64,000 nt of DNA from Nemertoderma westbladi (lineage: Eukaryota; Animalia; Xenacoelomorpha). The stretch is from NCBI GenBank assembly GCA_032718475.1, contig JAUCBJ010002753.1:1-64000 (forward strand). The letters are read 5' to 3'. The notes beneath the pieces were generated by a model that was not told where the DNA came from, did no database searches, and was given only the letters and a program-made list of their open reading frames with translations. The position numbers and the translations under genes were made by a program. Positions 1 to 32,700 of the stretch are shown here, piece by piece. The first letter of the stretch is position 1. Every line of letters starts with the position of its first letter.

Positions 1-3000
1 CAGGTAGGAGAATGTAACGGGATGACATTACCGATAAAACCGTCGCACAGGTAGGAGAATGTAACGGGATGACATTACCGATAAAACCGTCGCACAGGTA
101 GGAGAATGTAACGGGATGACATTACCGATAAAACCGTCGCACAGGTAGGAGAATGTAACGGGATGACATTACCGATAAAACCGTCGCACAGGTAGGAGAA
201 TGTAACGGGATGACATTGCCGATAAAACCGTCGCACAGGTAGGAGAATGTAACGGGATGACATTACCGATAAAACCGTCGCACAGGTAGGAGAATGTAAC
301 GGGATGACATTACCGATAAAACCGTCGCACAGGTAGGAGAATGTAACGGGATGACATTACCGATAAAACCGTCGCACAGGTAGGAGAATGTAACGGGATG
401 ACATTACCGATAAAACCGTCGCACAGGTAGGAGAATGTAACGGGATGACATTACCGATAAAACCGTCGCACAGGTAGGAGAATGTAACGGGATGACATTA
501 CCGATAAAACCGTCGCACAGGTAGGAGAATGTAACGGGATGACATTACCGATAAAACCGTCGCACAGGTAGGAGAATGTAACGGGATGACATTACCGATA
601 AAACCGTCGCACAGGTAGGAGAATGTAACGGGATGACATTACCGATAAAACCGTCGCACAGGTAGGAGAATGTAACGGGATGACATTACCGATAAAACCG
701 TCGCACAGGTAGGAGAATGTAACGGGATGACATTACCGATAAAACCGTCGCACAGGTAGGAGAATGTAACGGGATGACATTACCGATAAAACCGTCGCAC
801 AGGTAGGAGAATGTAACGGGATGACATTACCGATAAAACCGTCGCACAGGTAGGAGAATGTAACGGGATGACATTACCGATAAAACCGTCGCACAGGTAG
901 GAGAATGTAACGGGATGACATTACCGATAAAACCGTCGCACAGGTAGGAGAATGTAACGGGATGACATTACCGATAAAACCGTCGCACAGGTAGGAGAAT
1001 GTAACGGGATGACATTACCGATAAAACCGTCGCACAGGTAGGAGAATGTAACGGGATGACATTACCGATAAAACCGTCGCACAGGTAGGTGAATGTAACG
1101 GGATGACATTACAGATAAAACCGTCGCACAGGTAGGAGAATGTAACGGGATGACATTACCGATAAAACCGTCGCACAGGTAGGAGAATGTAACGGGATGA
1201 CATTACAGATAAAACCGTCGCACAGGTAGGAGAATGTAACGGGATGACATTACCGATAAAACCGTCGCACAGGTAGGAGAATGTAACGGGATGACATTAC
1301 AGATAAAACCGTAGCACAGGTAGGAGAATGTAACGGGATGACATTACCGATAAAACCGTCGCACAGGTAGGAGAATGTAACGGGATGACATTACCGATAA
1401 AACCGTCGCACAGGTAGGAGAATGTAACGGGATGACATTACCGATAAAACCGTCGCACAGGTAGGAGAATGTAACGGGATGACATTACCGATAAAACCGT
1501 CGCACAGGTAGGAGAATGTAACGGGATGACATTACCGATAAAACCGTCGCACAGGTAGGAGAATGTAACGGGATGACATTACCGATAAAACCGTCGCACA
1601 GGTAGGTGAATGTAACGGGATGACATTACAGATAAAACCGTCGCACAGGTAGGAGAATGTAATGGGATGACATTACCGATAAAACCGTCGCACAGGTAGG
1701 AGAATGTAACGGGATGACATTACAGATAAAACCGTCGCACAGGTAGGAGAATGTAACGGGATGACATTACCGATAAAACCGTCGCACAGGTAGGAGAATG
1801 TAACGGGATGACATTACAGATAAAACCGTAGCACAGGTAGGAGAATGTAACGGGATGACATTTCCGATAAAACCGTCGCACAGGTAGGAGAATGTAACGG
1901 GATGACATTAACATTACCGATAAAACCGTCGCACAGGTAGGAGAATGTAACGGGATGACATTACCGATAAAACCGTCGCACAGGTAGGAGAATGTAACGG
2001 GATGACATTACCGATAAAACCGTCGCACAGGTAGGAGAATGTAACGGGATGACATTACCGATAAAACCGTCGCACAGGTAGGAGAATGTAACGGGATGAC
2101 ATTACCGATAAAACCGTCGCACAGGTAGGAGAATGTAACGGGATGACATTAACATTACCGATAAAACCGTCGCTCGGGTAGGAGAATGTAACGGGATGAC
2201 ATTACCGATAAAACCGTCGCACAGGTAGGAGAATGTAACGGGATGACATTACCGATAAAACCGTCGCACAGGTAGGAGAATGTAACGGGATGACATTACC
2301 GATAAAACCGTCGCACAGGTAGGAGAATGTAACGGGATGACATTACCGATAAAACCGTCGCACAGGTAGGAGAATGTAACGGGATGACATTACCGATAAA
2401 ACCGTCGCACAGGTAGGAGAATGTAACGGGATGACATTACCGATAAAACCGTCGCACAGGTAGGAGAATGTAACGGGATGACATTACCGATAAAACCGTC
2501 GCACAGGTAGGATAATGTAACGGGATGACATTACCGATAAAACCGTCGCACAGGTAGGAGAATGTAACGGGATGACATTACCGATAAAACCGTCGCACAG
2601 GTAGGAGAATGTAACGGGATGACATTACCGATAAAACCGTCGCACAGGTAGGAGAATGTAACGGGATGACATTGCCGATAAAACCGTCGCACAGGTAGGA
2701 GAATGTAACGGGATGACATTGTCGATAAAACCGTCGCACAGGTAGGAGAATGTAACGGGATGACATTACCGATAAAACCGTCGCACAGGTAGGAGAATGT
2801 AACGGGATGACATTGCCGATAAAACCGTCGCACAGGTAGGAGAATGTAACGGGATGACATTACCGATAAAACCGTCGCACAGGTAGGAGAATGTAACGGG
2901 ATGACATTACCGATAAAACCGTCGCACAGGTAGGAGAATGTAACGGGATGACATTACCGATAAAACCGTCGCACAGGTAGGAGAATGTAACGGGATGACA

Positions 3001-6000
3001 TTACCGATAAAACCGTCGCACAGGTAGGAGAATGTAACGGGATGACATTACCGATAAAACCGTCGCTCAGGTAGGAGAATGTAACGGGATGACATTAACA
3101 TTACCGATAAAACCGTCGCACAGGTAGGAGAATGTAACGGGATGACATTACCGATAAAACCGTCGCACAGGTAGGAGAATGTAACGGGATGACATTACCG
3201 ATAAAACCGTCGCACAGGTAGGTGAATGTAACGGGATGACATTACCGATAAAACCGTCGCACAGGTAGGAGAATGTAACGGGATGACATTACCGATAAAA
3301 CCGTCGCACAGGTAGGAGAATGTAACGGGATGACATTACCGATAAAACCGTCGCACAGGTAGGAGAATGTAACGGGATGACATTACCGATAAAACCGTCG
3401 CACAGGTAGGAGAATGTAACGGGATGACATTACCGATAAAACCGTCGCACAGGTAGGAGAATGTAACGGGATGACATTACCGATAAAACCGTCGCACAGG
3501 TAGGAGAATGTAACGGGATGACATTACCGATAAAACCGTCGCACAGGTAGGAGAATGTAACGGGATGACATTACCGATAAAACCGTCGCACAGGTAGGAG
3601 AATGTAACGGGATGACATTACCGATAAAACCGTCGCACAGGTAGGAGAATGTAACGGGATGACATTACCGATAAAACCGTCGCACAGGTAGGAGAATGTA
3701 ACGGGATGACATTACCGATAAAACCGTCGCACAGGTAGGAGAATGTAACGGGATGACATTACCGATAAAACCGTCGCACAGGTAGGAGAATGTAACGGGA
3801 TGACATTACCGATAAAACCGTCGCACAGGTAGGAGAATGTAACGGGATGACATTACCGATAAAACCGTCGCACAGGTAGGAGAATGTAACGGGATGACAT
3901 TACCGATAAAACCGTCGCACAGGTAGGAGAATGTAACGGGATGACATTACCGATAAAACCGTCGCACAGGTAGGAGAATGTAACGGGATGACATTACCGA
4001 TAAAACCGTCGCACAGGTAGGTGAATGTAACGGGATGACATTACAGATAAAACCGTCGCACAGGTAGGAGAATGTAACGGGATGACATTACCGATAAAAC
4101 CGTCGCACAGGTAGGAGAATGTAACGGGATGACATTAACATTACCGATAAAACCGTCGCACAGGTAGGAGAATGTAACGGGATGACATTACCGATAAAAC
4201 CGTCGCACAGGTAGGAGAATGTAACGGGATGACATTACCGATAAAACCGTCGCACAGGTAGGAGAATGTAACGGGATGACATTACCGATAAAACCGTCGC
4301 ACAGGTAGGAGAATGTAACGGGATGACATTACCGATAAAACCGTCGCACAGGTAGGAGAATGTAACGGGATGACATTACCGATAAAACCGTCGCACAGGT
4401 AGGAGAATGTAACGGGATGACATTACCGATAAAACCGTCGCACAGGTAGGAGAATGTAACGGGATGACATTACCGATAAAACCGTCGCACAGGTAGGAGA
4501 ATGTAACGGGATGACATTAACATTACCGATAAAACCGTCGCTCGGGTAGGAGAATGTAACGGGATGACATTACCGATAAAACCGTCGCACAGGTAGGAGA
4601 ATGTAACGGGATGACATTACCGATAAAACCGTCGCACAGGTAGGAGAATGTAACGGGATGACATTACCGATAAAACCGTCGCACAGGTAGGAGAATGTAA
4701 CGGGATGACATTACCGATAAAACCGTCGCACAGGTAGGAGAATGTAACGGGATGACATTACCGATAAAACCGTCGCACAGGTAGGAGAATGTAACGGGAT
4801 GACATTACCGATAAAACCGTCGCACAGGTAGGAGAATGTAACGGGATGACATTACCGATAAAACCGTCGCACAGGTAGGAGAATGTAACGGGATGACATT
4901 ACCGATAAAACCGTCGCACAGGTAGGAGAATGTAACGGGATGACATTACCGATAAAACCGTCGCACAGGTAGGAGAATGTAACGGGATGACATTACCGAT
5001 AAAACCGTCGCACAGGTAGGATAATGTAACGGGATGACATTACCGATAAAACCGTCGCACAGGTAGGAGAATGTAACGGGATGACATTACCGATAAAACC
5101 GTCGCACAGGTAGGAGAATGTAACGGGATGACATTACCGATAAAACCGTCGCACAGGTAGGAGAATGTAACGGGATGACATTGCCGATAAAACCGTCGCA
5201 CAGGTAGGAGAATGTAACGGGATGACATTGTCGATAAAACCGTCGCACAGGTAGGAGAATGTAACGGGATGACATTACCGATAAAACCGTCGCACAGGTA
5301 GGAGAATGTAACGGGATGACATTGCCGATAAAACCGTCGCACAGGTAGGAGAATGTAACGGGATGACATTACCGATAAAACCGTCGCACAGGTAGGAGAA
5401 TGTAACGGGATGACATTACCGATAAAACCGTCGCACAGGTAGGAGAATGTAACGGGATGACATTACCGATAAAACCGTCGCACAGGTAGGAGAATGTAAC
5501 GGGATGACATTACCGATAAAACCGTCGCACAGGTAGGAGAATGTAACGGGATGACATTACCGATAAAACCGTCGCACAGGTAGGAGAATGTAACGGGATG
5601 ACATTACCGATAAAACCGTCGCTCAGGTAGGAGAATGTAACGGGATGACATTAACATTACCGATAAAACCGTCGCACAGGTAGGAGAATGTAACGGGATG
5701 ACATTGCCGATAAAACCGTCGCACAGGTAGGAGAATGTAACGGGATGACATTACCGATAAAACCGTCGCACAGGTAGGAGAATGTAACGGGATGACATTA
5801 CCGATAAAACCGTCGCACAGGTAGGAGAATGTAACGGGATGACATTGCCGATAAAACCGTCGCACAGGTAGGAGAATGTAACGGGATGACATTACCGATA
5901 AAACCGTCGCACAGGTAGGAGAATGTAACGGGATGACATTACCGATAAAACCGTCGCACAGGTAGGAGAATGTAACGGGATGACATTACCGATAAAACCG

Positions 6001-9000
6001 TCGCACAGGTAGGAGAATGTAACGGGATGACATTACCGATAAAACCGTCGCACAGGTAGGAGAATGTAACGGGATGACATTACCGATAAAACCGTCGCAC
6101 AGGTAGGAGAATGTAACGGGATGACATTACCGATAAAACCGTCGCACAGGTAGGAGAATGTAACGGGATGACATTACCGATAAAACCGTCGCACAGGTAG
6201 GTGAATGTAACGGGATGACATTACAGATAAAACCGTCGCACAGGTAGGAGAATGTAACGGGATGACATTACAGATAAAACCGTAGCACAGGTAGGAGAAT
6301 GTAACGGGATGACATTACCGATAAAACCGTCGCACAGGTAGGAGAATGTAACGGGATGACATTACCGATAAAACCGTCGCACAGGTAGGAGAATGTAACG
6401 GGATGACATTACCGATAAAACCGTCGCACAGGTAGGAGAATGTAACGGGATGACATTACCGATAAAACCGTCGCACAGGTAGGAGAATGTAACGGGATGA
6501 CATTACCGATAAAACCGTCGCACAGGTAGGAGAATGTAACGGGATGACATTACCGATAAAACCGTCGCACAGGTAGGAGAATGTAACGGGATGACATTAC
6601 CGATAAAACCGTCGCACAGGTAGGAGAATGTAACGGGATGACATTACCGATAAAACCGTCGCACAGGTAGGTGAATGTAACGGGATGACATTACAGATAA
6701 AACCGTCGCACAGGTAGGAGAATGTAACGGGATGACATTACCGATAAAACCGTCGCACAGGTAGGAGAATGTAACGGGATGACATTACAGATAAAACCGT
6801 CGCACAGGTAGGAGAATGTAACGGGATGACATTACCGATAAAACCGTCGCACAGGTAGGAGAATGTAACGGGATGACATTACAGATAAAACCGTAGCACA
6901 GGTAGGAGAATGTAACGGGATGACATTACCGATAAAACCGTCGCACAGGTAGGAGAATGTAACGGGATGACATTACCGATAAAACCGTCGCACAGGTAGG
7001 GGAATGTAACGGGATGACATTACCGATAAAACCGTCGCACAGGTAGGAGAATGTAACGGGATGACATTACCGATAAAACCGTCGCACAGGTAGGAGAATG
7101 TAACGGGATGACATTACCGATAAAACCGTCGCACAGGTAGGAGAATGTAACGGGATGACATTACCGATAAAACCGTCGCACAGGTAGGTGAATGTAACGG
7201 GATGACATTACAGATAAAACCGTCGCACAGGTAGGAGAATGTAATGGGATGACCTTACCGATAAAACCGTCGCACAGGTAGGAGAATGTAACGGGATGAC
7301 ATTACAGATAAAACCGTCGCACAGGTAGGAGAATGTAACGGGATGACATTACCGATAAAACCGTCGCACAGGTAGGAGAATGTAACGGGATGACATTACA
7401 GATAAAACCGTAGCACAGGTAGGAGAATGTAACGGGATGACATTTCCGATAAAACCGTCGCACAGGTAGGAGAATGTAACGGGATGACATTAACATTACC
7501 GATAAAACCGTCGCACAGGTAGGAGAATGTAACGGGATGACATTACCGATAAAACCGTCGCACAGGTAGGAGAATGTAACGGGATGACATTACCGATAAA
7601 ACCGTCGCACAGGTAGGAGAATGTAACGGGATGACATTACCGATAAAACCGTCGCACAGGTAGGAGAATGTAACGGGATGACATTACCGATAAAACCGTC
7701 GCACAGGTAGGAGAATGTAACGGGATGACATTAACATTACCGATAAAACCGTCGCTCGGGTAGGAGAATGTAACGGGATGACATTACCGATAAAACCGTC
7801 GCACAGGTAGGAGAATGTAACGGGATGACATTACCGATAAAACCGTCGCACAGGTAGGAGAATGTAACGGGATGACATTACCGATAAAACCGTCGCACAG
7901 GTAGGAGAATGTAACGGGATGACATTACCGATAAAACCGTCGCACAGGTAGGAGAATGTAACGGGATGACATTACCGATAAAACCGTCGCACAGGTAGGA
8001 GAATGTAACGGGATGACATTACCGATAAAACCGTCGCACAGGTAGGAGAATGTAACGGGATGACATTACCGATAAAACCGTCGCACAGGTAGGATAATGT
8101 AACGGGATGACATTACCGATAAAACCGTCGCACAGGTAGGAGAATGTAACGGGATGACATTACCGATAAAACCGTCGCACAGGTAGGAGAATGTAACGGG
8201 ATGACATTACCGATAAAACCGTCGCACAGGTAGGAGAATGTAACGGGATGACATTGCCGATAAAACCGTCGCACAGGTAGGAGAATGTAACGGGATGACA
8301 TTGTCGATAAAACCGTCGCACAGGTAGGAGAATGTAACGGGATGACATTACCGATAAAACCGTCGCACAGGTAGGAGAATGTAACGGGATGACATTGCCG
8401 ATAAAACCGTCGCACAGGTAGGAGAATGTAACGGGATGACATTACCGATAAAACCGTCGCACAGGTAGGAGAATGTAACGGGATGACATTACCGATAAAA
8501 CCGTCGCACAGGTAGGAGAATGTAACGGGATGACATTACCGATAAAACCGTCGCACAGGTAGGAGAATGTAACGGGATGACATTACCGATAAAACCGTCG
8601 CACAGGTAGGAGAATGTAACGGGATGATATTACTGATAAAACCGTCGCTCAGGTAGGAGAATGTAACGGGATGACATTAACATTACCGATAAAACCGTCG
8701 CACAGGTAGGAGAATGTAACGGGATGACATTACCGATAAAACCGTCGCACAGGTAGGAGAATGTAACGGGATGACATTACCGATAAAACCGTCGCACAGG
8801 TAGGTGAATGTAACGGGATGACATTACCGATAAAACCGTCGCACAGGTAGGAGAATGTAACGGGATGACATTACCGATAAAACCGTCGCACAGGTAGGAG
8901 AATGTAACGGGATGACATTACCGATAAAACCGTCGCACAGGTAGGAGAATGTAACGGGATGACATTACCGATAAAACCGTCGCACAGGTAGGAGAATGTA

Positions 9001-11500
9001 ACGGGATGACATTACCGATAAAACCGTCGCACAGGTAGGAGAATGTAACGGGATGACATTACCGATAAAACCGTCGCACAGGTAGGAGAATGTAACGGGA
9101 TGACATTACCGATAAAACCGTCGCACAGGTAGGAGAATGTAACGGGATGACATTACCGATAAAACCGTCGCACAGGTAGGAGAATGTAACGGGATGACAT
9201 TACCGATAAAACCGTCGCACAGGTAGGAGAATGTAACGGGATGACATTACCGATAAAACCGTCGCACAGGTAGGAGAATGTAACGGGATGACATTACCGA
9301 TAAAACCGTCGCACAGGTAGGAGAATGTAACGGGATGACATTACCGATAAAACCGTCGCACAGGTAGGAGAATGTAACGGGATGACATTACCGATAAAAC
9401 CGTCGCACAGGTAGGAGAATGTAACGGGATGACATTACCGATAAAACCGTCGCACAGGTAGGAGAATGTAACGGGATGACATTACCGATAAAACCGTCGC
9501 ACAGGTAGGAGAATGTAACGGGATGACATTACCGATAAAACCGTCGCACAGGTAGGAGAATGTAACGGGATGACATTACCGATAAAACCGTCGCACAGGT
9601 AGGTGAATGTAACGGGATGACATTACAGATAAAACCGTCGCACAGGTAGGAGAATGTAACGGGATGACATTACCGATAAAACCGTCGCACAGGTAGGAGA
9701 ATGTAACGGGATGACATTAACATTACCGATAAAACCGTCGCACAGGTAGGAGAATGTAACGGGATGACATTACCGATAAAACCGTCGCACAGGTAGGAGA
9801 ATGTAACGGGATGACATTACCGATAAAACCGTCGCACAGGTAGGAGAATGTAACGGGATGACATTACCGTTAAAACCGTCGCACAGGTAGGAGAATGTAA
9901 CGGGATGACATTACCGATAAAACCGTCGCACAGGTAGGAGAATGTAACGGGATGACATTACCGATAAAACCGTCGCACAGGTAGGAGAATGTAACGGGAT
10001 GACATTACCGATAAAACCGTCGCACAGGTAGGAGAATGTAACGGGATGACATTACCGATAAAACCGTCGCACAGGTAGGAGAATGTAACGGGATGACATT
10101 AACATTACCGATAAAACCGTCGCTCGGGTAGGAGAATGTAACGGGATGACATTACCGATAAAACCGTCGCACAGGTAGGAGAATGTAACGGGATGACATT
10201 ACCGATAAAACCGTCGCACAGGTAGGAGAATGTAACGGGATGACATTACCGATAAAACCGTCGCACAGGTAGGAGAATGTAACGGGATGACATTACCGAT
10301 AAAACCGTCGCACAGGTAGGAGAATGTAACGGGATGACATTACCGATAAAACCGTCGCACAGGTAGGAGAATGTAACGGGATGACATTACCGATAAAACC
10401 GTCGCACAGGTAGGAGAATGTAACGGGATGACATTACCGATAAAACCGTCGCACAGGTAGGAGAATGTAACGGGATGACATTACCGATAAAACCGTCGCA
10501 CAGGTAGGAGAATGTAACGGGATGACATTACCGATAAAACCGTCGCACAGGTAGGAGAATGTAACGGGATGACATTACCGATAAAACCGTCGCACAGGTA
10601 GGATAATGTAACGGGATGACATTACCGATAAAACCGTCGCACAGGTAGGAGAATGTAACGGGATGACATTACCGATAAAACCGTCGCACAGGTAGGAGAA
10701 TGTAACGGGATGACATTACCGATAAAACCGTCGCACAGGTAGGAGAATGTAACGGGATGACATTGCCGATAAAACCGTCGCACAGGTAGGAGAATGTAAC
10801 GGGATGACATTGTCGATAAAACCGTCGCACAGGTAGGAGAATGTAACGGGATGACATTACCGATAAAACCGTCGCACAGGTAGGAGAATGTAACGGGATG
10901 ACATTGCCGATAAAACCGTCGCACAGGTAGGAGAATGTAACGGGATGACATTACCGATAAAACCGTCGCACAGGTAGGAGAATGTAACGGGATGACATTA
11001 CCGATAAAACCGTCGCACAGGTAGGAGAATGTAACGGGATGACATTACCGATAAAACCGTCGCACAGGTAGGAGAATGTAACGGGATGACATTACCGATA
11101 AAACCGTCGCACAGGTAGGAGAATGTAACGGGATGACATTACCGATAAAACCGTCGCACAGGTAGGAGAATGTAACGGGATGACATTACCGATAAAACCG
11201 TCGCTCAGGTAGGAGAATGTAACGGGATGACATTAACATTACCGATAAAACCGTCGCACAGGTAGGAGAATGTAACGGGATGACATTGCCGATAAAACCG
11301 TCGCACAGGTAGGAGAATGTAACGGGATGACATTACCGATAAAACCGTCGCACAGGTAGGAGAATGTAACGGGATGACATTACCGATAAAACCGTCGCAC
11401 AGGTAGGAGAATGTAACGGGATGACATTGCCGATAAAACCGTCGCACAGGTAGGAGAATGTAACGGGATGACATTACCGATAAAACCGTCGCTCAGGTAG
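1..11500 (+). repeat. 47-bp minisatellite (CAGGTAGGAGAATGTAACGGGATGACATTACCGATAAAACCGTCGCA)n, about 244 copies, runs off the left edge
   Basis: Near-perfect tandem unit read directly; rare variants include a 6-bp insertion (CATTAACATTA) and GTGAAT, TTACAG, TTGCCG, GCTCGG substitutions; ends at GCTCAGGTAG. Confidence 0.99.
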
Positions 11501-11639
11501 AAAGAGAAAAACAACAAATGTGTGAGTGAGTTTAGTAAATGAACATGTTGTGGGATTGGGAGGACCGAGTATTAGGACATAGTCTTCGCATGTTCGTTTG
11601 TTATTATTTATAATATTGTAGTAATGCATTGTATTACAG

Positions 11640-11763
11640 AGTGAACCCCATTAGAGGAGACAACACTGACAACATGGGAGTCATAGAAATCCTAGATCTC
11701 TTGAATAAACACGTCGCTAGTGGTTTCTCTAGCATTAAACAAGCCTTTCTCTCATTCGATAAT
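11640..11763 (+). CDS. EFCAB6: EFCAB6-like exon 1 (window numbering)
   Basis: tattacag|A GTG AAC ... GAT AAT|gtaagt; (R)VNPIRGD...KQAFLSFDN; preceded by a phase-2 intron. Confidence 0.85.
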
Positions 11764-14700
11764 GTAAGTGAAAGTATTAAATTGGATATATACCAATTTA
11801 TTAAATCGATTCGATGTTGATTCTGTATAGTGTGAATTACTTTCTGTTACTTTCTCGTATATTTTAACAGGATCGAGACGGTAAAATAACCCGAAAGGAA
11901 TTACGCAACATAGTTGAGAGTTTCTGTTTCCGGTTGTCTGACGAACAATTCCGAAATCTCTGCACCCTTCTGGATCCCGAACATAGGAACTTTGTTGATT
12001 ATCAAGCGTTTCTGAATCTGTTCGAAATCACCGAAAATGTTGAGGTAAATAAGATCTTCGTGTTTTACCGTTTCGAATTAGATCCTACATGGGGTTATGT
12101 CCCCCCCCCCCCACCCCTCTAGCCATACGTTGTACCCCGGGCATTCTACCATACGTTGTACCCCGAACATTACGTAGTACCTCCGGACATTCTACCATAC
12201 GTTGTACCCCGGACATTCTACCATACGTTGTACCCCGGACATTCTACCATACGTAGTACCCCGGACATTCTACCATACGTTGTACCCCGGACATTACGTA
12301 GTACCTCCGGATATTCTACCATACGTTGTACCCCGGACATTACGTTGTACCCCGGAAATTCTACCATACGTTGTACCCCGGACATTACGTAGTACCTCCG
12401 GATATTCTACCATACGTTGTACCCCGGACATTACGTTGTACCCCGGACATTCTACCATACGTTGTACCCCGGACATTACGTAGTACCTCCGGATATTCTA
12501 CCATACGTTGTACCCCGGACATTACGTAGTACCCCGGAAATTCTACCATACGTTGTACCCCGGACATTACGTAGTACCTCCGGATATTCTACCATACGTT
12601 GTACCCCGGACATTCTACCATACGTTGTACCCCGGACATTACGTAGTACCCCGGAAATTCTACCATACGTTGTACCCCGGACATTACGTAGTACCTCCGG
12701 ATATTCTACCATACGTTGTACCCCGGGCATTCTACCATACGTTGTACCCCGGACATTACGTAGTACCCCGGAAATTCTACCATACGTTGTACCCCGGACA
12801 TTACGTAGTACCTCCGGATATTCTACCATACGTTGTACCCCGGACATTACGTAGTACCCCGGAAATTCTACCATACGTTGTACCCCGGACATTACGTAGT
12901 ACCTCCGGATATTCTACCATACGTTGTACCCCGGACATTACGTAGTACCCCGGAAATTCTACCATACGTTGTACCCCGGACATTACGTAGTACCTCCGGA
13001 TATTCTACCATACGTTGTACCCCGGGCATTCTACCATACGTTGTACCCCGGACATTACGTAGTACCTCCGGATATTCTACCATACGTTGTACCCCGGACA
13101 TTCTACCATACGTTGTACCCCGGACATTACGTAGTACCCCGGAAATTCTACCATACGTTGTACCCCGGGCATTCTACCATACGTTGTACCCCGGATATTC
13201 TACCATACGTTGTACCCCGGGCATTCTACCATACGTAGTACCCCGGACATTACGTAGTACCCCGGAAATTCTACCATACGTTGTACCCCGGACATTACGT
13301 AGTACCTCCGGATATTCTACCATACGTTGTACCCCGGGCATTCTACCATACGTTGTACCCCGGACATTACGTAGTACCTCCGGATATTCTACCATACGTT
13401 GTACCCCGGACATTCTACCATACGTTGTACCCCGGACATTACGTAGTACCCCGGAAATTCTACCATACGTTGTACCCCGGGCATTCTACCATACGTTGTA
13501 CCCCGGATATTCTACCATACGTTGTACCCCGGGCATTCTACCATACGTAGTACCTCCGGATATTCTACCATACGTTGTACCCCGGGCATTCTACCATACG
13601 TTGTACCCCGGATATTCTACCATACGTTGTACCCCGGGCATTCTACCATACGTTGTACCCCGGATATTCTACCATACGTTGTACCCCGGGCATTCTACCA
13701 TACGTAGTACCCCGGGCATTCTACCATACGTTGTACCCCGGACATTACGTAGTACCCCGGAAATTCTACCATACGTTGTACCCCGGACATTACGTAGTAC
13801 CTCCGGATATTCTACCATACGTTGTACCCCGGACATTACGTAGTACCTCCGGATATTCTACCATACGTTGTACCCCGGACATTCTACCATACGTTGTACC
13901 CCGGACATTACGTAGTACCTCCGGACATTCTACCATACGTTGTACCCCGGACATTACGTAGTACCTCCGGATATTCTACCATACGTTGTACCCCGGACAT
14001 TACGTAGTACCTCCGGATATTCTACCATACGTTGTACCCCGGACATTACGTAGTACCTCCGGACATTCTACCATACGTTGTACCCCGGACATTACGTAGT
14101 ACCTCCGGATATTCTACCATACGTTGTACCCCGGGCATTCTACCATACGTTGTACCCCGGACATTACGTAGTACCTCCGGATATTCTACCATACGTTGTA
14201 CCCCGGACATTCTACCATACGTTGTACCCCGGACATTACGTAGTACCTCCGGATATTCTACCATACGTTGTACCCCGGACATTACGTAGTACCTCCGGAT
14301 ATTCTACCATACGTTGTACCCCGGACATTCTACCATACGTTGTACCCCGGACATTACGTAGTACCTCCGGATATTCTACCATACGTTGTACCCCGGACAT
14401 TACGTAGTACCTCCGGATATTCTACCATACGTTGTACCCCGGACATTCTACCATACGTTGTACCCCGGACATTACGTAGTACCTCCGGATATTCTACCAT
14501 ACGTTGTACCCCGGACATTACGTAGTACCTCCGGATATTCTACCATACGTTGTACCCCGGACATTCTACCATACGTTGTACCCCGGACATTCTACCATAC
14601 GTACTATCCCGGACAATCTACCATATAGTAATTGGTTTTCTTTGATATTTCCCCCCGCTTTATTGAATATCAGAACGTGGTGCTCCTCTAATGGACTTGA

Positions 14701-17700: not shown

Positions 17701-20700
17701 TGTTTCTTTTAAAACTGTTTTTTAAAAATATATTATATCTTAGAAGATTAGCCAACTGTAGGTTATTTTTGTAATTGATTAATGTTTAAAAGCATACTAG
17801 TTATTAACTTTAGCTAGTGTTTTATTAACTTGTAAAATTAACTATATGACAGTCTGTCTGTCATGTAACCTCCGCCTAACCCGAAGTTAAATCTACTTAA
17901 TTTCACATATTCTACTAAAAAACACTAGACCTACTGATTTTAGGGTTATACATGAGCAAAGCCAAACCAACCTGCCTGTAAATACATGACTATATGGGAT
18001 TATACTACATTATCTAAACAAACCAGCAAAGATAACCAAAATACTAAACTTAAATACCTGAATAAACAGGCAGCATAATTGTCAAATTTACTAATCAAGC
18101 ATAATAAACCGTTAAATGCTGCAGTTGGGGCTATTTATTAGAGTGTACTACTGCTGTACAGTTAGTTAGACTATACATTCTTCAACTACAGTGCTACTGA
18201 ATTACACAGAAATGCATGACATCTTTCACTACTGGTAGGGACTGTCAGACAGCTGCTGAGTATCGGATACTCATTTTTTTTGTCCTAAATACCTAATGGG
18301 TTCATAGTTTAACACTTATCTGGCATCCCAGTCATAAATAGGAAACCATAGAACATAATATAATATCATGGCTCATACGGGTGTGCCACGGTGGGGTAGG
18401 TTGTGGCTCATACGGGTGTGGTGCCCCCGTATGCAAAGGGTTAACTACGTCACTCTACCACGTTTATGGAATCCATATCATTGTCTTTAGAATCAGCCAC
18501 GGACAAACAGCGGGCAAGGAACGTACCAAAATAATGTCTGCGGCCGAAGTTATTACAAGAGTGAGGGATCTTATGATACAGAAGTCGAGTAGCATCCGAG
18601 ATAACTTCCTACGATTCGATGGAGATAACGACGGAAAAATATCCAAAAAAGAATTTAGACATGTGAGTTGAACCGGAGGCGAGCTGTATAATTATCATTC
18701 GTTTAGCCTATTTTTTTTAAAAACATTTTATTTTTATTACGCATTGTTTGTTTAATTAAACCATATCACACCATGGCTATTATATTTTGACCCTAAGGAT
18801 CTCTTTAATTTTAAATTGCATTTTTTGAGCGAAAAATACAATATATCCGTAACCATGGAAACGATCCTAATTTTTCTTATACAAATCGACTATTGTCTCT
18901 GGCATGGGGATAATTTGTTACTCCTTCAATAATATTATGACTTCGATTTGTTGATTTAGTTACTAAGTTACCTCGGACTCATCATGGACGCCAAGGTCTT
19001 TGATGATCTCTGTCTGTCTATTCGCTTCCCGTTCTTCGGTATGACGTACACCCAGTTCCTGCAGTACTTCGATGACACACGGAACGCTGGCCCAGGCGAC
19101 GACATCCTCCACTCCGACAATCACAGAGTCAATTCGCACCGCGGCGAGGTCGCCATGGATGCAGGACAGGTGCAGCATCGGTTCCTAAGGAAACTCAGGG
19201 AAAATTTCTCAGTGAGTTTCTCATATTCACATATATTTTTAGTTACAGACGGGGCAAACTTACTCAAGTGATAGTTTTAGTGGTTACTATGTTAAAATCA
19301 TAGAGAAACCGAAAAAGTTACCAAAATATAAAATATAGAAACTCATAACACAGAGGGTTGAAAATGGTCAAATGAATACCATCACATAACTAAAGTAGGC
19401 TCTTTGTAACAAACAGCAGTTCCGAGTTCAGCTGTGTGTGTATACAGAATTGTTTGTTTTGGTGAGGAACATAAGATAAACATAACATGGTAGGTATTAA
19501 TATATTCATTAACAATTAAAATTATTATAAATAATTCAATTAGACCTTGGCTTCATCTACCTGCCTTATACTGTGTATCTAGTACATGGATGGATATTGT
19601 GCATGGGTATGGTATATACTGTCGGTATACCTATAATTTCCCGTAAATGATAGTACAGTACGATGCTTTCCGAGGCGTCATGGTTACAATCCTGAATCAT
19701 TGTCGTTAATTATTTTATTTATTTTTATTTAAATTTGTTCTGTTTTGTTTTTAAGTAGCCCTGAAGACGGGCGTGACGCCCGAAATTCGATTGGAAAGAA
19801 TAATTAAATTTGATCATTAATATTTTTGGTATCGGCACCGTCGGACAGTGCCTACAATAAAGGATTCTAGACAGAAACCCGATTGTGAACCGCGGTTCGC
19901 AAACGACTATTACTTGTAGAGTGGGTAAGCGACCTAAAAGGTTAAAATTGTGACAAAACTGTCAAACTTGTCAAAATGTCTGTACCTTTGGTTTAGATGA
20001 CAAAAATCCAAACTCCAAAAACTCTGACCACATTAACTTTCAATTTCATTTTTCTTTCCTTAGCAACATGGACTTTAGATAGCAACTACAGTAGGCAAAC
20101 TATTGGTGAACTTTTTCCCAAATTTTGTAAAAAACAAACTTTACTCCCATGACTTAGTTAAACTTTAGTCCAATGACTTAGTCGATTGACTGGACTAATG
20201 AACTTCTACATGGTTAGCTATTTAGTGTCCAGAGCATCGAGAATTTATCTAATAATTTACTACGCTTTATTATCATTTGGCTGGTACAATATAGGAAGAA
20301 GCTTATTAACTCAAATTAACGACTAAACGATTGTCGATCTCAATCTCCTTGTTCCTAAAAATTGACTATTCTGGTTTTAAAACTAAAAAAAATTAAATCT
20401 AAATTCAATATAACAATCCCAATTTTATTGTGAAAATTTCCGCATCATTACTGGGAACTATTATTTTTTCCTACGACGGAATTGTATAATTTTAAATGTA
20501 TCAGTTACCTTATTATGTGGGGCAATTTTTGATATTTTTAACAATTTGAAAATTGTATGTTAGACATAGTTACTGAGATATTGCAATTAATATGCTGCAG
20601 GTCAGTGTTCATTTAATTCCTTTCCCATTGAATCACAGCTTATTGCAAAATTTATTAAATTATTAATTCTACATTACTAATTCATAATTACTCATAAAAT

Positions 20701-23700: not shown

Positions 23701-26700
23701 GGACACCACACACAAGTGGTTTAACACCTTGTGGGACACCAACACACAAGTGGTTTAACACCTTGTGGGACACCACACACAAGTGGTTTAACACCTTGTG
23801 GGACACCAACACATAAGTGGTTTAACACCTTGTGGGACACCACACACAAGTGGTTTAACACCTTGTGGGACACCAACCCACAAGTGGTTTAACACCTTGT
23901 GGGACACTACACACAAGTGGTTTAACACCTTGTGGGACACCACACACAAGTGGTTTAACACCTTGTGGGACACCACACACAAGTGGTTTAACACCTTGTG
24001 GGACACCACACACAAGTGGTTTAACACCTTGTGGGACACCACACACAAGTGGTTTAACACCTTGTGGGACACCACACACAAGTGGTTTAACACCTTGTGG
24101 GATACCAACATACAAGTGGTTTAACACCTTGTGGGACACCACACACAAGTGGTTTATCACCTTGTGGGACACCACACACAAGTGGTTTAACACCTTGTGG
24201 GACACCACACACAAGTGGTTTAACACCTTGTGGGACACCAACACACAAGTGGTTTAACACCTTGTGGGACACCACACACAAGTGGTTTAACACCTTGTGG
24301 GACACCAACCCACAAGTGGTTTAACACCTTGTGGGACACTACACACAAGTTGTTTAACACCTTGTGGGACACCACACACAAGTGGTTTAACACCTTGTGG
24401 GACACTACACACAAGTGGTTTAACACCTTGTGGGACACCACACACAAGTGGTTTAACACCTTGTGGGATACCAACATACAAGTGGTTTAACACCTTGTGG
24501 GACACCACACACAAGTGGTTTATCACCTTGTGGGACACCACACACAAGTGGTTTAACACCTTGTGGGACACCACACACAAGTGGTTTAACACCTTGTGGG
24601 ACACCACACACAAGTGGTTTAACACCTTGTGGGACACCACACACAAACACCTTGTGGGACACCACACACAAGTGGTTTAACACCTTGTGGGACACAACAC
24701 ACAAGTGGTTTAAAGGTTGAGGTGAAATCGCCTATTGACACAATTTGTGTTCTAGAATTAAGATAGCTGGATAATAATTGGTGTGGGAGGCCTCGGATAC
24801 CATATGCGGATAATTTGTGGAGCAAAATGTTATGGTGTAGGGTATCGAAGGCTTTTTTAAAATCGATATATATTGCACAAGTTGAGTTTTTATTGTCTAG
24901 GGCGTATACGATTACACAGATACAACTTATTTACAAACGTCTCGCAGCATCTGTAAATAATGTAATTATTGTAATTTATTTTCCGTTGTAAAATTTTTAT
25001 TATAAAAAATTATTATTAAATTTAAATTATTATATTTTGTTGTTGGATGTGTCACCGCATGGAGAGCCAGCGATCACGATTCGATGATCGGTTACTTAGC
25101 GAAAAAGAGATTTTAGTTTCTATATATTATACCATATATTTTTAATCTTTTATATAATGTTATTTTAACTGTCGATATAAAGTAAATGTTACAGTTTCTG
25201 TAATTTTAATTATAATGTTACTGTCACCAGTTACGTTAGTAACCAACCGATTAAAAAATGTGTAACAAATCATTAACCAAACCAAGTTACGGTATCTTTT
25301 TATTTCTTAATTTCTCAGACATTGCGTGAAGCTTTCTATAAGATGGATGCAGACCACGATGGGTTCATACGACGAGCAGACTTCCGGCAAATAATGGACC
25401 AGTTTATGTTCTACATCGACGATACGCAGTTCAGGAAGTACATGGAGCATCTCGGTATCACACCTAAAAGTCGTCTAGGATATCGGGATTTCCTTAACTT
25501 ATTCGAAGAAAAGGAAACCGCACCAACGTGGCTCGATTCTAAACACAGGTAGGGGTGTTAGAACCAAAGTGGCTCGATTCTAAACACAGGTAGGGGTGTT
25601 AGCACCAACGTGGCTCGATTCTAAACACATGTAGGGGTGTTAGCACCACGTGGCTCCTTTCTAGCACCACACAGGTAGGGGTGTTAGCACCAACATGGCT
25701 CGATTCTAAAAATAGGTAGAGGTGTTAGCACCACTTGGCTCAATTCTAAACACAGGTAGGGGTGTTAGCACCAACGTGGCTCGATCCTAAACACAGATAG
25801 GGGTGTTAGCACCACGTGGCTCCTTTCTAGCACCACTTGGCTCGATTCTAAACACAGGTAGGGGTGTTAGCACCACTTGGCTCGATTCTAAACACAGGTA
25901 GGGGTGTTAGCACCAACGTGGCTCGATTCTAAACACAGGTAGGGGTGTTAGCACCAACGTGACTTGATTCTAAACACAGGTAGGGGTGTTAGCACCACTT
26001 GGCTCGGTTCTAAACACAGGTAGGGGTGTTAGCACCAACGTGGCTCGATTCTAAACACAGATAGGGGTGTTAGCACCACGTGGCTCCTTTCTAGCACCAC
26101 TTGGCTCGATTCTAAACACAGGTAGGGGTGTTAGCACCACTTGGCTCGATTCTAAACACAGGTAGGGGTGTTAGCACCAACGTGGCTCGATTCTAAACAC
26201 AGGGAGGGGTGTTAGAACCACGTGGCTCCTTTTAGCACCACTTGGCTCGATTCTAAACACAGGTAGGAGTGTTAGCACCACTTGGCTCGATTCTAAACAC
26301 AGGTAGGGGTGTTAGCACCAACGTGGCTCGATTCCAAACACAGGTAGGGGTGTTAGAACCACGTGGCTCCTTTCTAGCACCACTTGGCTCGATTCTAAAC
26401 ACAGGTAGGTGTGTTAGCACCACTTGGCTCGATTCTAAACACAGGTAGGGGTGTTAGCACCAACGTGGCACGATTCTAAACACAGGTAGGGGTGTTAGCA
26501 CCAACATGGCTCGATTCTAAAAATAGGTAGAGGTGTTAGCACCACTTGGCTCGATTCTAAACACAGGTAGGGGTGTTAGCACCAACGTGGCTCGATTCTA
26601 AACACAGGTAGGGGTGTTAGCACCACGTGGCTCCTTTCTAGCACCACTTGGCTCGATTCTAAACACAGGTAGGAAGTGTTAGCACCACTTGGCTCCATTC

Positions 26701-29700
26701 TAAACACAGGTAGGGGTGTTAGCACCAACGTGGCTCGATTCCAAACACAGGTAGGGGTGTTAGCACCACTTGGCTCGATTCTAAACACAGGTAGGGGTGT
26801 TAGCACCAACGTGGCTCGATTCTAAACACAGGTAGGGGTGTTAGAACCACGTGGCTCCTTTTTAGCACCACTTAGCTCGATTCTAAACACAGGTAGGGGT
26901 GTTAGCACCAACGTGGCTCGATTCCAAACACAGGTAGGGGTGTTAGCACCACTTGGCTCGATTCTAAACACAGGTAGGGGTGTTAGCACCAACGTGGCTC
27001 GATTCTAAACACAGGTAGGGGTGTTAGAACCACGTGGCTCCTTTTTAGCACCACTTAGCTCGATTCTAAACACAGGTAGGGGTGTTAGCACCACTTGGCT
27101 CGATTCTAAACACAGGTAGGGGTGTTAGCACCAACGTGGCTCGATTCTAAACACAGGTAGGGGTGTTAGAACCACGTGGCTCCTTTCTAGCACCACTTGG
27201 CTCGATTCTAAACACAGGTAGGGGTGTTAGCACCACTTGGCTCGATTCTAAACACAGGTAGGGGTGTTAGCACCAACGTGGCTCGATTCTAAACACAGGT
27301 AGGGGTGTTAGAACCACGTGGCTCCTTTTTAGCACCACTTAGCTCGATTCTAAACACAGGTAGGTGTGTTAGCACCACTTGGCTCGATTCTAAAAATAGG
27401 TAGGGGTGTTAGCACCACGTGGCTCCTTTCTAGCACCACTTGCCTCGATTCTAAACACAGGTAGGGGTGTTAGCACCACTTAGCTCGATTCTAAACACAG
27501 GTAGGGGTGTTAGCACCACTTGACTCGATTCTAAACACAGGTAGGGGTGTTAGCACCACTTGACTCGATTCTAAACACAGGTAGGGGTGTTAGCACCAAC
27601 GTGGCTCGATTCTAAACACAGGTAGGGGTGTTAGAACCACGTGGCTCCTTTCTAGCACCACTTGGCTCGATTATAAACACAGGTAGGTGTGTTAGCACCA
27701 CTTGGCTCGATTCTAAACACAGGTAGGGGTGTTAGCACCAACGTGGCTCGATTCTAAACACAGGTAGGGGTGTTAGCACCAACATGGCTCGATTCTAAAA
27801 ATAGGTAGAGGTGTTAGCACTACTTGGCTCGATTCTAAACACAGGTAGGGGTGTTAGCACCAACGTGGCTCGATTTTAAACACAGGTAGGGGTGTTAGAA
27901 CCACGTGGCTCCTTTTTAGCACCACTTAGCTCGATTCTAAACACAGGTAGGTGTGTTAGCACCACTTGGCTCGATTCTAAAAATAGGTAGGGGTGTTAGC
28001 ACCATTTGGCTCGATTCTAAAAATAGGTAGGGGTGTTAGAACCACGTGGCTCCTTTCTAGCACCACTTGGCTCGATTCTAAACACAGGTAGAGGTGTTAG
28101 CACCAACGTGGCTCGATTCTAAACACAGGTAGGGGTGTTAGCACCACGTGGCTCCTTTCTAGCACCACTTAGCTCGATTTTAAACACAGGTAGGGGTGTT
28201 AGCACCACTTGACTCGATTCTAAACACAGGTAGGGGTGTTAGCACCAACGTGGCTCGATTCTAAACACAGGTAGGGGTGTTAGAACCACGTGGCTCCTTT
28301 CTAGCACCACTTGGCTCGATTATAAACACAGGTAGGTGTGTTAGCACCACTTGGCTCGATTCTAAACACAGGTAGGGGTGTTAGCACCAACGTGGCTCGA
28401 TTCTAAACACAGGTAGGGGTGTTAGCACCAACATGGCTCGATTCTAAAAATAGGTAGAGGTGTTAGCACTACTTGGCTCGATTCTAAACACAGGTAGGGG
28501 TGTTAGCACCAACGTGGCTCGATTCTAAACACAGGTAGGGGTGTTAGCACCAACATGGCTCGATTCTAAAAATAGGTAGAGGTGTTAGCACTACTTGGCT
28601 CGATTCTAAACACAGGTAGGGGTGTTAGCACCAACGTGGCTCGATTCTAAACACAGGTAGGGGTGTTAGAACCACGTGGCTCCTTTTTAGCACCACTTAG
28701 CTCGATTCTAAACACAGGTAGGTGTGTTAGCACCATTTGGCTCGATTCTAAAAATAGGTAGGGGTGTTAGCACCACGTGGCTCCTTTCTAGCACCACTTG
28801 CCTCGATTCTAAATACAGGTAGGGGTGTTAGCACCACTTAGCTCGATTCTAAACACAGGTAGGGGTGTTAGCACCACTTGACTCGATTCTAAACACAGGT
28901 AGAGGTGTTAGCACCAACGTGGCTCGATTCTAAACACAGGTAGGGGTGTTAGAACCACGTGGCTCCTTTCTAGCACCACTTGGCTCGATTCTAAACACAG
29001 GTAGGGGTGTTAGCACCAACGTGGCTCGATTCTAAACACAGGTAGGGGTGTTAGAACCACGTGGCTCCTTTCTAGCACCACTTGGCTCGATTATAAACAC
29101 AGGTAGGTGTGTTAGCACCACTTGGCTCGATTCTAAACACAGGTAGGGGTGTTAGCATCAACGTGGCTCGATTCTAAACACAGGTAGGGGTGTTAGCACC
29201 AACATGGCTCGATTCTAAAAATAGGTAGAGGTGTTAGCACCAACGTGGCTCGATTCCAAACACAGGTAGGGGTGTTAGAACCACGTGGCTCCTTTCTAGC
29301 ACCACTTGGCTCGATTCTAAACACTGGTAGGGGTGTTAGCACCATTTGGCTCGATTCTAAAAATAGGTAGGGGTGTTAGCACCACGTGGCTCCTTTCTAG
29401 CACCACTTGGCTCGATTCTAAACACTGGTAGGGGTGTTAGCACCACTTGGCTCGATTCTAAACACAGGTAGGGGTGTTAGCACCAACGTGGCTCGATTCC
29501 AAACACAGGTAGGGGTGTTAGAACCACGTGGCTCCTTTCTAGCACCACTTGGCTCGATTCTAAACACTGGTAGGGGTGTTAGCACCATTTGGCTCGATTC
29601 TAAAAATAGGTAGGGGTGTTAGAACCACGTGGCTCCTTTCTAGCACCACTTGGCTCGATTCTAAACACTGGTAGGGGTGTTAGCACCATTTGGCTCGATT

Positions 29701-32700
29701 CTAAAAATAGGTAGGGGTGTTAGAACCACGTGGCTCCTTTCTTGCACCACTTGGCTCGATTATAAACACAGGTAGGTGTGTTAGCACCACTTGGCTCGAT
29801 TCTAAACACAGGTAGGGGTGTTAGCATCAACGTGGCTCGATTCTAAACACAGGTAGGGGTGTTAGCACCAACATGGCTCGATTCTAAAAATAGGTAGAGG
29901 TGTTAGCACCAACGTGGCTCGATTCCAAACACAGGTAGGGGTGTTAGAACCACGTGGCTCCTTTCTAGCACCACTTGGCTCGATTCTAAACACTGGTAGG
30001 GGTGTTAGCACCATTTGGCTCGATTCTAAAAATAGGTAGGGGTGTTAGCACCACGTGGCTCCTTTCTAGCACCACTTGGCTCGATTCTAAACACTGGTAG
30101 GGGTGTTAGCACCACTTGGCTCGATTCTAAACACAGGTAGGGGTGTTAGCACCAACGTGGCTCGATTCTAAACACAGGTAGGGGTGTTAGCACCAACATG
30201 GCTCGATTCTAAAAATAGGTAGAGGTGTTAGCACCACTTGGCTCGATTCTAAACACAGGTAGGGGTGTTAGCACCAACGTGGCTCGATTCTAAACACAGG
30301 TAGGGGTGTTAGCACCACGTGGCTCCCTTCTAGCACCACTTGGCTCGATTCTAAACACAGGTAGGAGTGTTAGCACCACTTGGCTCGATTCTAAACACAG
30401 GTAGGGGTGTTAGCACCAACGTGGCTCGATTCCAAACACAGGTAGGGGTGTTAGTGTTAGAACCACGTGGCTCCTTTCTAGCACCACTTGGCTCGATTCT
30501 AAACACAGGTAGGGGTATTAGCACCACTTGGCTCGATTCTAAAAATAGGTAGGGGTGTTAGCACCACGTGGCTCCTTTCTAGCACCACTTGGCTCGATTC
30601 TAAACACTGGTAGGGGTGTTAGCACCACTTGGCTCGATTCTAATCACAGGTAGGGGTGTTAGCACCAACGTGGCTCGATTCTAAACACAGGTAGGGGTGT
30701 TAGCACCAACATGGCTCGATTCTAAAAATAGGTAGAGGTGTTAGCACCACTTGGCTCGATTCTAAACACAGGTAGGGGTGTTAGCACCAACGTGGCTCGA
30801 TTCTAAACACAGGTAGGGGTGTTAGCACCACGTGGCTCCTTTCTAGCACCCCTTGGCTCGATTATAAACACAGGTAGGAGTGTTAGCACCACTTGTCTCG
30901 ATTCTAAACACAGGTAGGGGTGTTAGCACCAACGTGGCTCGATTCTAAACACAGGTAGGGGTGTTAGAACCACGTGGCTCCTTTCTAGCACCACTTGGCT
31001 CGATTCTAAACACAGGTATGGGTGTTAGCACCACTTGGCTCGATTCTAAAAATAGGTAGGGGTGTTAGCACCAACGTGGCTCGATTCTAAACACAGGTAG
31101 GGGTGTTAGAACCACGTGGCTCCTTTCTAGCACCACTTGGCTTGATTCTAAACACAGGTAGGTGTGTTAGCACCACTTGGCTCGATTCTAAACACAGGTA
31201 GGGGTGTTAGCACCAACGTGGCTCGATTCCAAACACAGGTAGGGGTGTTAGCACCACGTGGCTCCTTTCTAGCACCACTTGGCTCGATTCTAAACACAGG
31301 TAGGGGTGTTAGCACCAACGTGGCTCGATTCTAAACACAGGTAGGGGTGTTAGCACCAACGTGGCTCGATTCTAAACACAGGTAGGGGTGTTAGCACCAC
31401 TTGGCTCGATTCTAAACACAGGTAGGGGTGTTAGCTCCACGTGGCTCCTTTCTAGCACCACTTGGCTCGATTCTAAACACAGGTAGGGGTGTTAGCACCA
31501 ACGTGGCTCGATTCTAAACACAGGTAGGGGTGTTAGCACCAACGTGGCTCGATTCTAAACACAGGTAGGGGTGTTAGCACCAACGTGGCTCGATTCTAAA
31601 CACAGGTAGGGGTGTTAGCACCACTTGGCTCGATTCTAAACACAGGTAGGTGTGTTAGCACCAATGTGGCTCGATTCTAAACACAGGTAGGTGTGTTAGC
31701 ACCAACGTGGCTCGATTCTAAGGACAGGTAGGGGTGTTAGCACCACTTGGCTCGATTCTAAACACAGGTAGGTGTGTTAGCACCAACATGGCTCGATTCT
31801 AAACACAGGTAGGTGTGTTAGCACCAACGTGGCTCGATTCTAAACACAGGTAAGGGTGTTAGAACCAAAGTGGCTCGATTCTAAACACAGGTAGGGGTGT
31901 TAGCACCACTTGGCTCGATTCTAAACACAGGTAGGTGTGTTAGCACCAACGTGGCTCGATTCTAAGCAAAGGTGGGGGTGTTAGCACCAATGTGATGTCA
32001 CATATCTCCAGTGCCACAACAAATTTTGTAACACTTCCATTGAATCTCAGTTTCTGAGATTATTGTCGAAAATTCATGTTATGTAGTGTGAATTATAATC
32101 AGAGGTTAATGTGAATTATTTATTAATAATTTTGTTGATAATATGGTTTATTATAAGTGTATAAGCTTAAAACTTCAGTTTATATAATTTCCTAAATATT
32201 ATTTTTTAATAATTAGTAATTATGCGTTAATTAGGTATAATGATACATATGACCCTTGTGAACTCGGTGCGGGTCAGGTTCATGAGATGCTCAAATCTAA
32301 AGCTAGAGGGCGCTTCCATGATTTGTCACGTGCGTTCGGAGCACTGGTCGCACGTGATGGTGGTTACATCACGAAGAAACACTTCCAGCGGATGTTGTGG
32401 CAGTTCAACTTGCCTATGACTCCGGGCGAATTCGATAAGCTCTGGAGGCGGTGAGTTTAATATGGTTGGCTATTTGAAAATATGTCGCGAAATCTATGTA
32501 ATTATTTTACATAATTACAAATAGCCAACCTGCGTCAACGGATTGGTTCTGTGTGCAGGCAGGTAATGCTGCTTGTATCAAGGAATCGTTTGGCCCAGGC
32601 ATGGGAGTCTTACAGAGATAATTATGGGCCCTAGATTCGGCATCCATTGTCATTTGTCATTTCCATAGTATTTCCTTACCAGTTTTAATGTGATAATTTT

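Follow-up and report, generated by a model that had tools for sequence, protein, structure and literature searches.

The EFCAB6 locus and its 47-base array

The window analysed here is a stretch of 64,000 nucleotides from the xenacoelomorph Nemertoderma westbladi (assembly GCA_032718475.1, contig JAUCBJ010002753.1, positions 1 to 64,000 of the forward strand). It opens inside a 47-base minisatellite that leads into the exons of a forward-strand gene which, as judged from the similarity of its predicted protein, is an orthologue of EFCAB6, a multi-EF-hand protein of the microtubule doublets of cilia and flagella. The last coding exon in the window matched the EFCAB6 chains of the Protein Data Bank (PDB) with E=2.1e-62 (residues 1411-1496 of 1497), and the exon at 25319-25546 matched them with E=3.5e-44 (residues 747-808). 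Pfam searches of the gene's exons returned EF-hand_7 and EF-hand_11 (28.1 bits, cut-off 21.7), and the encoded protein is built from repeated modules. Word-based protein searches with exons 11641-11763 and 25319-25546 and with longer proteins gave no match. The coding exon next to the array (11640..11763, forward strand) reads A + VNPIRGDNTDNMG...SFDN, its first base completing an AG|A codon for Arg, and is followed on the same strand by an EF-hand exon at 11871..12044 (DRDGKITRKEL...; Pfam EF-hand_6/_7).

Positions 1-11500 form a single head-to-tail array with a period of 47, 243.1 copies, 97% matches, 1% indels and a score of 21813 in Tandem Repeats Finder (TRF), and the array extends past the left end of the window. 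A parse anchored on a conserved 12-base word gave 243 unit starts over 1..11497 (forward strand), i.e. 242 full units and the last one; 230 of the 242 spacings measured 47 bases and the other 12 measured 53 bases. The consensus was matched exactly by 181/242 full units and the remaining 61 fell into 16 variant types, including one with a 6-base insertion. In the register of the array's left edge (see below), the consensus unit starts TAGGAGAATGT... and ends ...CGCACAGG, giving TAGGAG...CACAGG overall. Donor-like words recur throughout 1-11510 (CAGGTAGG, n=239; AGGTA, n=240; CACAGGTAGG, n=234). These counts agree with an initial annotation, made from the letters of the window, in which about 244 donor copies had been proposed; the unit quoted there (AAC GGG ATG ... 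TCG CAC AG|GTAGGAG) is present in the window.

The array ends at 11497 in a variant unit (...CGCTCAGG) and is followed by TAGAAAGAG.... This last unit and the right edge of the array occupy 11451..11503 (forward strand) and contain the donor CAG|GTAGAAAGA, the TAG at 11498-11500 being a microhomology with the start of the unit. Between the array and the exon lie 142 bases of unique intron (11498..11639, forward strand), in line with the 140 nt or so given by the initial annotation, and these end in the acceptor ...tgtattacAG. Compared with the U1 consensus CAG|GTAAGT as given in PMC1557585, the unit donor (CAG|GTAGGA) agrees at 7/9 positions and the terminal donor (CAG|GTAGAA) at 6/9, the unit donor having gained a G at +5. 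The terminal copy, CAG|GTAGAAAGA, is probably the donor from before the amplification. Reading through past any donor gives CAC AGG TAG, i.e. a stop after one codon.

Two other identities were considered for the 47-base array and rejected. A coding repeat is contradicted by the unit length, which is not a multiple of 3, and by stops in two of the three unit frames. A structured RNA gene was likewise rejected; an Rfam search of 1-12100 gave 0 matches. BLAST of two units from each of 10 arrays against the array-masked window found only chance matches of 11-12 bases and no extra copy of a unit.

Splice joint and left edge of the array

Contigs of four public sequencing runs (X1-X4, all labelled 'DNA?') were aligned to 11300-11760. 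A run search found no run on record as RNA among the four that hold words of the window. X4 derives from a different sample and study than the two runs likely to be the source of the assembly. One X4 contig (704 bases, depth 11.4) matched 11310-11351, skipped 284 bases bounded by GT..AG (cut at +4) and resumed over 11636-11760. The joint is 11355|11640 and reads ...CCGTCGCACAG|AGTGAACCCC, so the junction predicted by the initial annotation is present in this one cDNA-like contig, which carries exactly one unit between the unique flank and exon 11640. X4 depth was zero over 11364-11635, and X4 held a 0.40 share of the sampled words of 11501-12110, a segment that is 49% exon. As the unique intron was uncovered and the word share was near the exon share, X4 was taken to be cDNA despite its label, which is itself a guess. 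The presence of a single unit then indicates that the first donor was used in that molecule. No GT..AG joint at this intron was seen in the contigs of the three DNA runs, and no unit-unit junction was present in the X4 contigs.

The same contigs place the left edge of the array. Upstream of 11310 there are 26 letters in the X4 contig and 255 in an X1 DNA contig, and the last 26 of X1 are identical to those of X4, indicating that the array begins where unique sequence meets TAGGAGAATGT.... Hand translation in the frame of exon 11640 is free of stops and reads ...RFIETFQNP | IGECNGMTLPIKPSH | R | VNPIRGD..., so that an upstream exon entering the first unit, as had been anticipated, was found with its frame continuous. 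The phase-2 donor called for by the initial annotation also agrees with exon 11640, which begins with one codon-completing base. The F-I-E-T-F of the flank matches the F-L-x-x-F with which the gene's other EF-hand modules end (FLNLFE, FLQYFD and FLEAID).

With the left edge placed, the anatomy of the unit can be read directly. The proposal that each unit joins an exon end to a 5' splice site was right, but the partition given for it was wrong, the exon share being 46 of the 47 bases and not 35. The first 46 bases are exon and the final G alone is intron (plus the shared TAG). GTAGGAGAATGT is this G followed by the start of the next exon copy, and the donor CAG|GTAGGAG thereby arises anew at every boundary between units. 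Behind the last unit stands TAG AAAGAG, which leaves a TAG on both sides of the copied segment, as would be expected if a 3-base microhomology had allowed slippage or misalignment in the first duplication.

Paralogous modules and the direction of copying

The repeated modules of the gene provided a comparison for the exon end. In the module at 18960-19211, direct reading of 19122..19133 (forward strand) gives an uninterrupted CACAGAGTCAAT (His-Arg-Val-Asn), against which the spliced text at the 47-mer intron reads CACAG|AGTGAAC. From the F-x-x-F motif to the Arg there are 18 residues at both places. The shared text and spacer suggest that the exon end is old coding sequence and that the array was copied from the exon. 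The case for the exon coming first is, on these sequence grounds, strong as regards the length and the final 5 bases and weak as regards the remaining 41. When the two linker exons flanking the copied residues were searched against the PDB, no match was returned.

Two further arrays in the same gene, all of their parts lying on the forward strand, are made of copies of predicted splice junctions. An EF-hand exon at 25319..25548 (Pfam, PDB) ends ...TAPTWLDSKH + AG, and its last 29 bases form the first unit of a 41-base minisatellite of ~158 units with sub-variants (25520..31994, ~6.5 kb; TRF). Each unit comprises 29 exon bases and 12 intron bases (GTAGGGGTGTTA) with the donor CAG|GTAGGGG; among the donor words, CAGGTAGG occurs with n=107 and AGGTA with n=130. 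The exon after this intron (32235..32450) reads G + YNDTYDP..., giving AG|G for Arg. A paralogous TGGCTGGATTCGGACCACCGTTATAACGAT encodes WLDSDHRYND without a break at 14966-14995 (KWLDSDHRYND), as against TWLDSKH-R|YND at the 41-mer intron; as this paralog is contiguous, the copied part of the 41-mer is genuine coding sequence and the direction of copying is fixed there.

The third junction array is an acceptor array. Upstream of its intron, an exon at 34194..34349 ends in ...FIELLE + AG|gtatgt (GAA AG). A 32-base minisatellite of 58 units (35723..37580; TRF) follows, whose unit covers the final ~22-24 bases of the intron, among them the acceptor ...CCGTTACAG, and continues for 8-10 bases into the exon, GCTAGGTT(TA). 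The acceptor part of the unit reads ...TTTGTCCGTTACAG, and 53 units keep TTACAGGCTAGG. The exon that follows (37571..37766) reads G + LGLPTNESRFSYTRFLEAIDEG..., its first 10 bases being the end of the last 32-mer unit, and has a paralogous exon text in LGITPKSRLGYRDFLNLFEE; the joined ...FIELLE-R-LGLPTNESRFSYTRFLEAIDEG parallels ...YMEHLGITPKSRLGYRDFLNLFEE of another module. The splice junctions at both arrays (25548|32235 and 34349|37571) are predictions from sequence. By direct reading, use of a wrong copy in either array meets a stop within 1-4 codons; for an earlier 32-mer copy this is a TAG after 3 sense codons.

The introns that contain the two donor arrays, the 47-mer and the 41-mer, are paralogous, are in phase 2 and share the text CACAG|GTAGG. 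There are four paralogous His-Arg linker positions in all. Two have a phase-2 intron (11355|11640 and 25548|32235), both filled by junction-derived arrays, and the other two (19122-19133 and 14966-14995) are uninterrupted. As the intron is present in 2/4 linkers, introns would have been lost or gained among the modules of one gene. A separate observation concerns the 15-mer TTTATAGAAACATTT of the 32-mer unit, which also occurs in the unique exon flank to the left of the 47-mer array; in the window it was found only inside the 32-mer array (35753-37527; 20 matches, 0 expected).

Growth and copy number of the 47-base array

Variant units recur in the same order 118 units further along, and 26/38 variant positions agree at this offset. 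At the corresponding offset of 5582 bases there were 64 mismatches over 5918 bases (1.08%; 98.9% identical), as compared to 4.9% at the next best offset, indicating that the array in the window consists of about two copies of a 5.6-kb block. A shorter variant motif recurs inside each copy of the block. This 118-unit higher-order repeat fits enlargement by unequal exchange of multi-unit blocks.

Array depth was compared with unique depth in the DNA runs X1, X2 and X3 (11307-11400). Five consensus-unit contigs of X1 had depths of 4367-5000 as compared to 24.8 on the unique flank, a ~176-202-fold ratio. The ratio was ~21 for X2 (279.4/13.2) and ~15-25 for X3 (360-575/23.3). These values hint at hundreds of copies in one sample and far fewer in another, i.e. 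either a ~tenfold length polymorphism or library bias.

Origin of the array and alternative explanations

The 47-base array is best explained as a boundary-spanning ('mirage'-type) minisatellite composed of an exon end and the first intron base, and to this explanation as a whole, including its steps of origin, growth and first-donor splicing, we assign a probability of about 0.88. The exon would have come first and the array would have been copied from it. Its birth was likely a slippage at the 3-base TAG microhomology, and enlargement likely proceeded by unequal exchange of multi-unit blocks. If, among identical donors, the one furthest upstream is selected, as experiments showed for human F7, the downstream donors would be silent. 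Alternatively, the downstream donors may be used, and nonsense-mediated decay would then clear the stop-bearing RNAs. As to the array, it is likely neutral and unstable, a by-product that serves no function in itself.

Two further accounts of the array were rejected. Birth of the intron by tandem duplication (the Rogers model) is at odds with the acceptor and the 142 bases before it, which are unique, and with the occurrence of an intron at this phase-2 position in a paralogous module (25548|32235); from these it follows that the intron is older than the array. A recursive splice site (ratchet point) was also discarded. The motif of such a site is a polypyrimidine tract and an AG directly before a GT donor; the unit has GATAAAACCGTCGCACAG before GT, without a pyrimidine tract.

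Several points weigh against the explanation favoured here. The splicing evidence consists of one contig from one run with a guessed 'DNA?' label and an inferred cDNA nature, and, as rare variants are lost from contigs, splicing from downstream donors may go unseen in them. The upstream exon was seen over only 30 letters and lies outside the window. The 15 copied residues are without detectable similarity to paralogous linkers, save for the His-Arg and the spacer length, and part of the case for an exon-first direction in the 47-mer comes, by analogy, from the 41-mer. Assembly could have produced the 118-unit super-repeat, and per-contig depth ratios differ tenfold between samples, contig depth being no copy number. 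Finally, neutrality of the array is a claim from absence of evidence.

The copying could have run the other way, with an older intronic 47-mer satellite that lost its first unit to the exon when the donor shifted. In agreement with this, the final His is all that the 15 unit-encoded residues (IGECNGMTLPIKPSH) share with paralogous linkers, and searches gave no orthologue with which these residues could be compared. An addition of 47 bases would shift the frame, yet the frame is continuous from the flank through the unit to 11640; moreover, CACAG|AGTGAAC matches the uninterrupted paralog CACAGAGTCAAT with an equal spacer, and the copied part of the sister 41-mer array is demonstrably old coding sequence. 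A satellite that preceded the exon end is thus judged very improbable. Even less credible is the notion that the joined X4 contig is DNA of a processed retrocopy or an intronless allele and not mRNA. The 'DNA?' label of X4 is what speaks for it, whereas the lack of cover on the unique intron, the word share close to the exon share, the exact GT..AG ends of the skip and the lack of such a joint in three DNA runs all speak for spliced RNA.

An array copied from the exon might still have acquired a role or be smaller than it appears, and we consider both ideas unlikely. As a functional decoy, the ~240 donors would sequester the U1 small nuclear ribonucleoprotein or would divert splicing to stop-bearing isoforms and so lower EFCAB6 output, with array length tuning expression. 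The donor is intact in 239 of ~243 units and has a better fit to the U1 consensus (7/9) than the terminal donor (6/9), any later donor leads to an immediate stop, and proximal pseudo-sites are used in human 6-16 and CBS according to PMC1557585. On the other side, the X4 contigs lack unit-unit junctions, the high unit identity and block duplications fit recent neutral turnover, and a constrained length is hard to reconcile with a copy number that may differ tenfold from one sample to another; the 26-mer, 23-mer and 39-mer arrays of the same gene exist without any splice site. As regards size, the assembly may have inflated an allele of tens, not hundreds, of units; array/unique depth ratios of only ~15-25 in X2 and X3 are compatible with this, as is the presence of about two copies of the 5582-base block, since such a pattern can arise by mis-assembly. 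X1, in which all sampled words were present, has a ratio that fits ~200 or more units, and the block copies differ at 64 places and are therefore not one block read twice.

Relation to known boundary-spanning repeats

The 47-base array belongs to a described kind of element, the boundary-spanning minisatellite. In the account of Borensztajn et al. 2006 (PMC1557585), the exon-intron boundary at intron 7 (IVS7) of human F7 lies within the first unit of a 37-bp variable number tandem repeat (VNTR), and the authentic donor is followed by identical pseudo-donors, and 50 constructs showed that the most upstream donor is chosen, in a 5'-to-3' scanning-type process. The arrays are alike in having the boundary in the first unit and reiterated donors; F7 normally uses only the most upstream donor and is length-polymorphic (PMC1557585). 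They differ in number, F7 having 5-9 units as compared to at least 243 here, and in partition, the F7 unit comprising 4 exon and 33 intron bases as against 46 + 1, so that here the intron part of the donor copies exon letters. Donor choice was established by experiments in F7 and is indicated by one contig here (F7 data from PMC1557585). The same source lists boundary minisatellites in 6-16 (interferon-inducible), CBS IVS13, LAMIN B2 and PDGF, and the copy number here is ~ten times that of these cases as described there. Human 6-16 has 25 pseudo-sites, and the two nearest pseudo-sites are also used in 6-16 and CBS (PMC1557585); such use here would lead to an immediate stop, and none was seen in the contigs.

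Amphioxus 'mirages' have been described in Adh3, the globins BflGb6 and BflGb9, troponin C and PGBD5 (PMC3087553, PMC3902484). As reported in these two sources, they occur at 5' and 3' boundaries, sometimes several per gene, with regular splicing kept and an unstable length, and the edges of their clusters are excluded from homogenisation. The EFCAB6 gene resembles them in having both 5' and 3' boundary arrays and several in one gene (PMC3087553). Reported mirages comprise 3-6 units of 150-160 bp in the globins, and in Adh3 the units measure 10-72 bp, as compared to 243, ~158 and 58 units in the one gene here (PMC3087553, PMC3902484). In the Rogers model, as summarised in PMC3087553, an exon segment with an AGGT is duplicated in tandem and an intron is thereby gained; the likeness is that a tandem exon copy supplies a splice site, and the difference is that the acceptor and 142 intron bases are unique here.

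Against the cases described in these sources, the EFCAB6 array stands out by its scale, with at least 243 donors over 11.5 kb as compared to 5-25 in the human arrays and 3-6 units in the amphioxus globin arrays. It also stands out in that its unit is almost wholly exon and that three junction arrays, two donor and one acceptor, occur in one gene. A literature search by titles and abstract openings found no genome-wide study of boundary-spanning repeats among the papers listed. The locus offers an extreme natural test of how the spliceosome chooses among ~240 identical 5' splice sites when later choices are punished by a stop, and the matching acceptor array in the same gene adds to this test. 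It is also a warning for gene predictors and assemblers, since only the first of hundreds of candidate donors is the true one and the length of the array is uncertain.

Other arrays and features of the window

Tandem arrays make up ~29 kb of the 48.6 kb of the gene in the window. Arrays without exon contact, located in or behind the EFCAB6 gene, comprise a 26-mer (26/72) at 12118-14625, a 33-mer at 23288-24713 beside a reverse-transcriptase remnant, a 39-mer at 39423-40281, a 23-mer at 43494-47744, a 29-mer at 49590-51879 and an intronic 20-mer. Exon edges are spanned by 3/8 intronic arrays as compared to 0.47 expected (P(3 or more) = 0.0087), in a rough, post hoc model that took 35 edges of hand-curated exons, a gene span of 19.6 kb outside arrays and the unit length of the respective array. 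It is conceivable, but on balance doubtful, that splice junctions are hot spots that seed minisatellites in this genome, i.e. that amplification is directed to junctions and not placed by chance slippage. If so, amplification would be driven by a sequence motif or coupled to transcription or splicing. CAGG is present in most of the array units.

Two remnants of retroelement reverse-transcriptase open reading frames were identified, one on the reverse strand at 22500-23351 (Pfam RVT_1, E=6.4e-11), which abuts the 33-mer array, and one on the forward strand at 53279-53830 (Pfam RVT_1, E=3.4e-18). Downstream of EFCAB6, a 914-residue open frame on the forward strand (60972-63716) encodes several C2H2 zinc fingers (Pfam zf-C2H2, E=1.9e-20).

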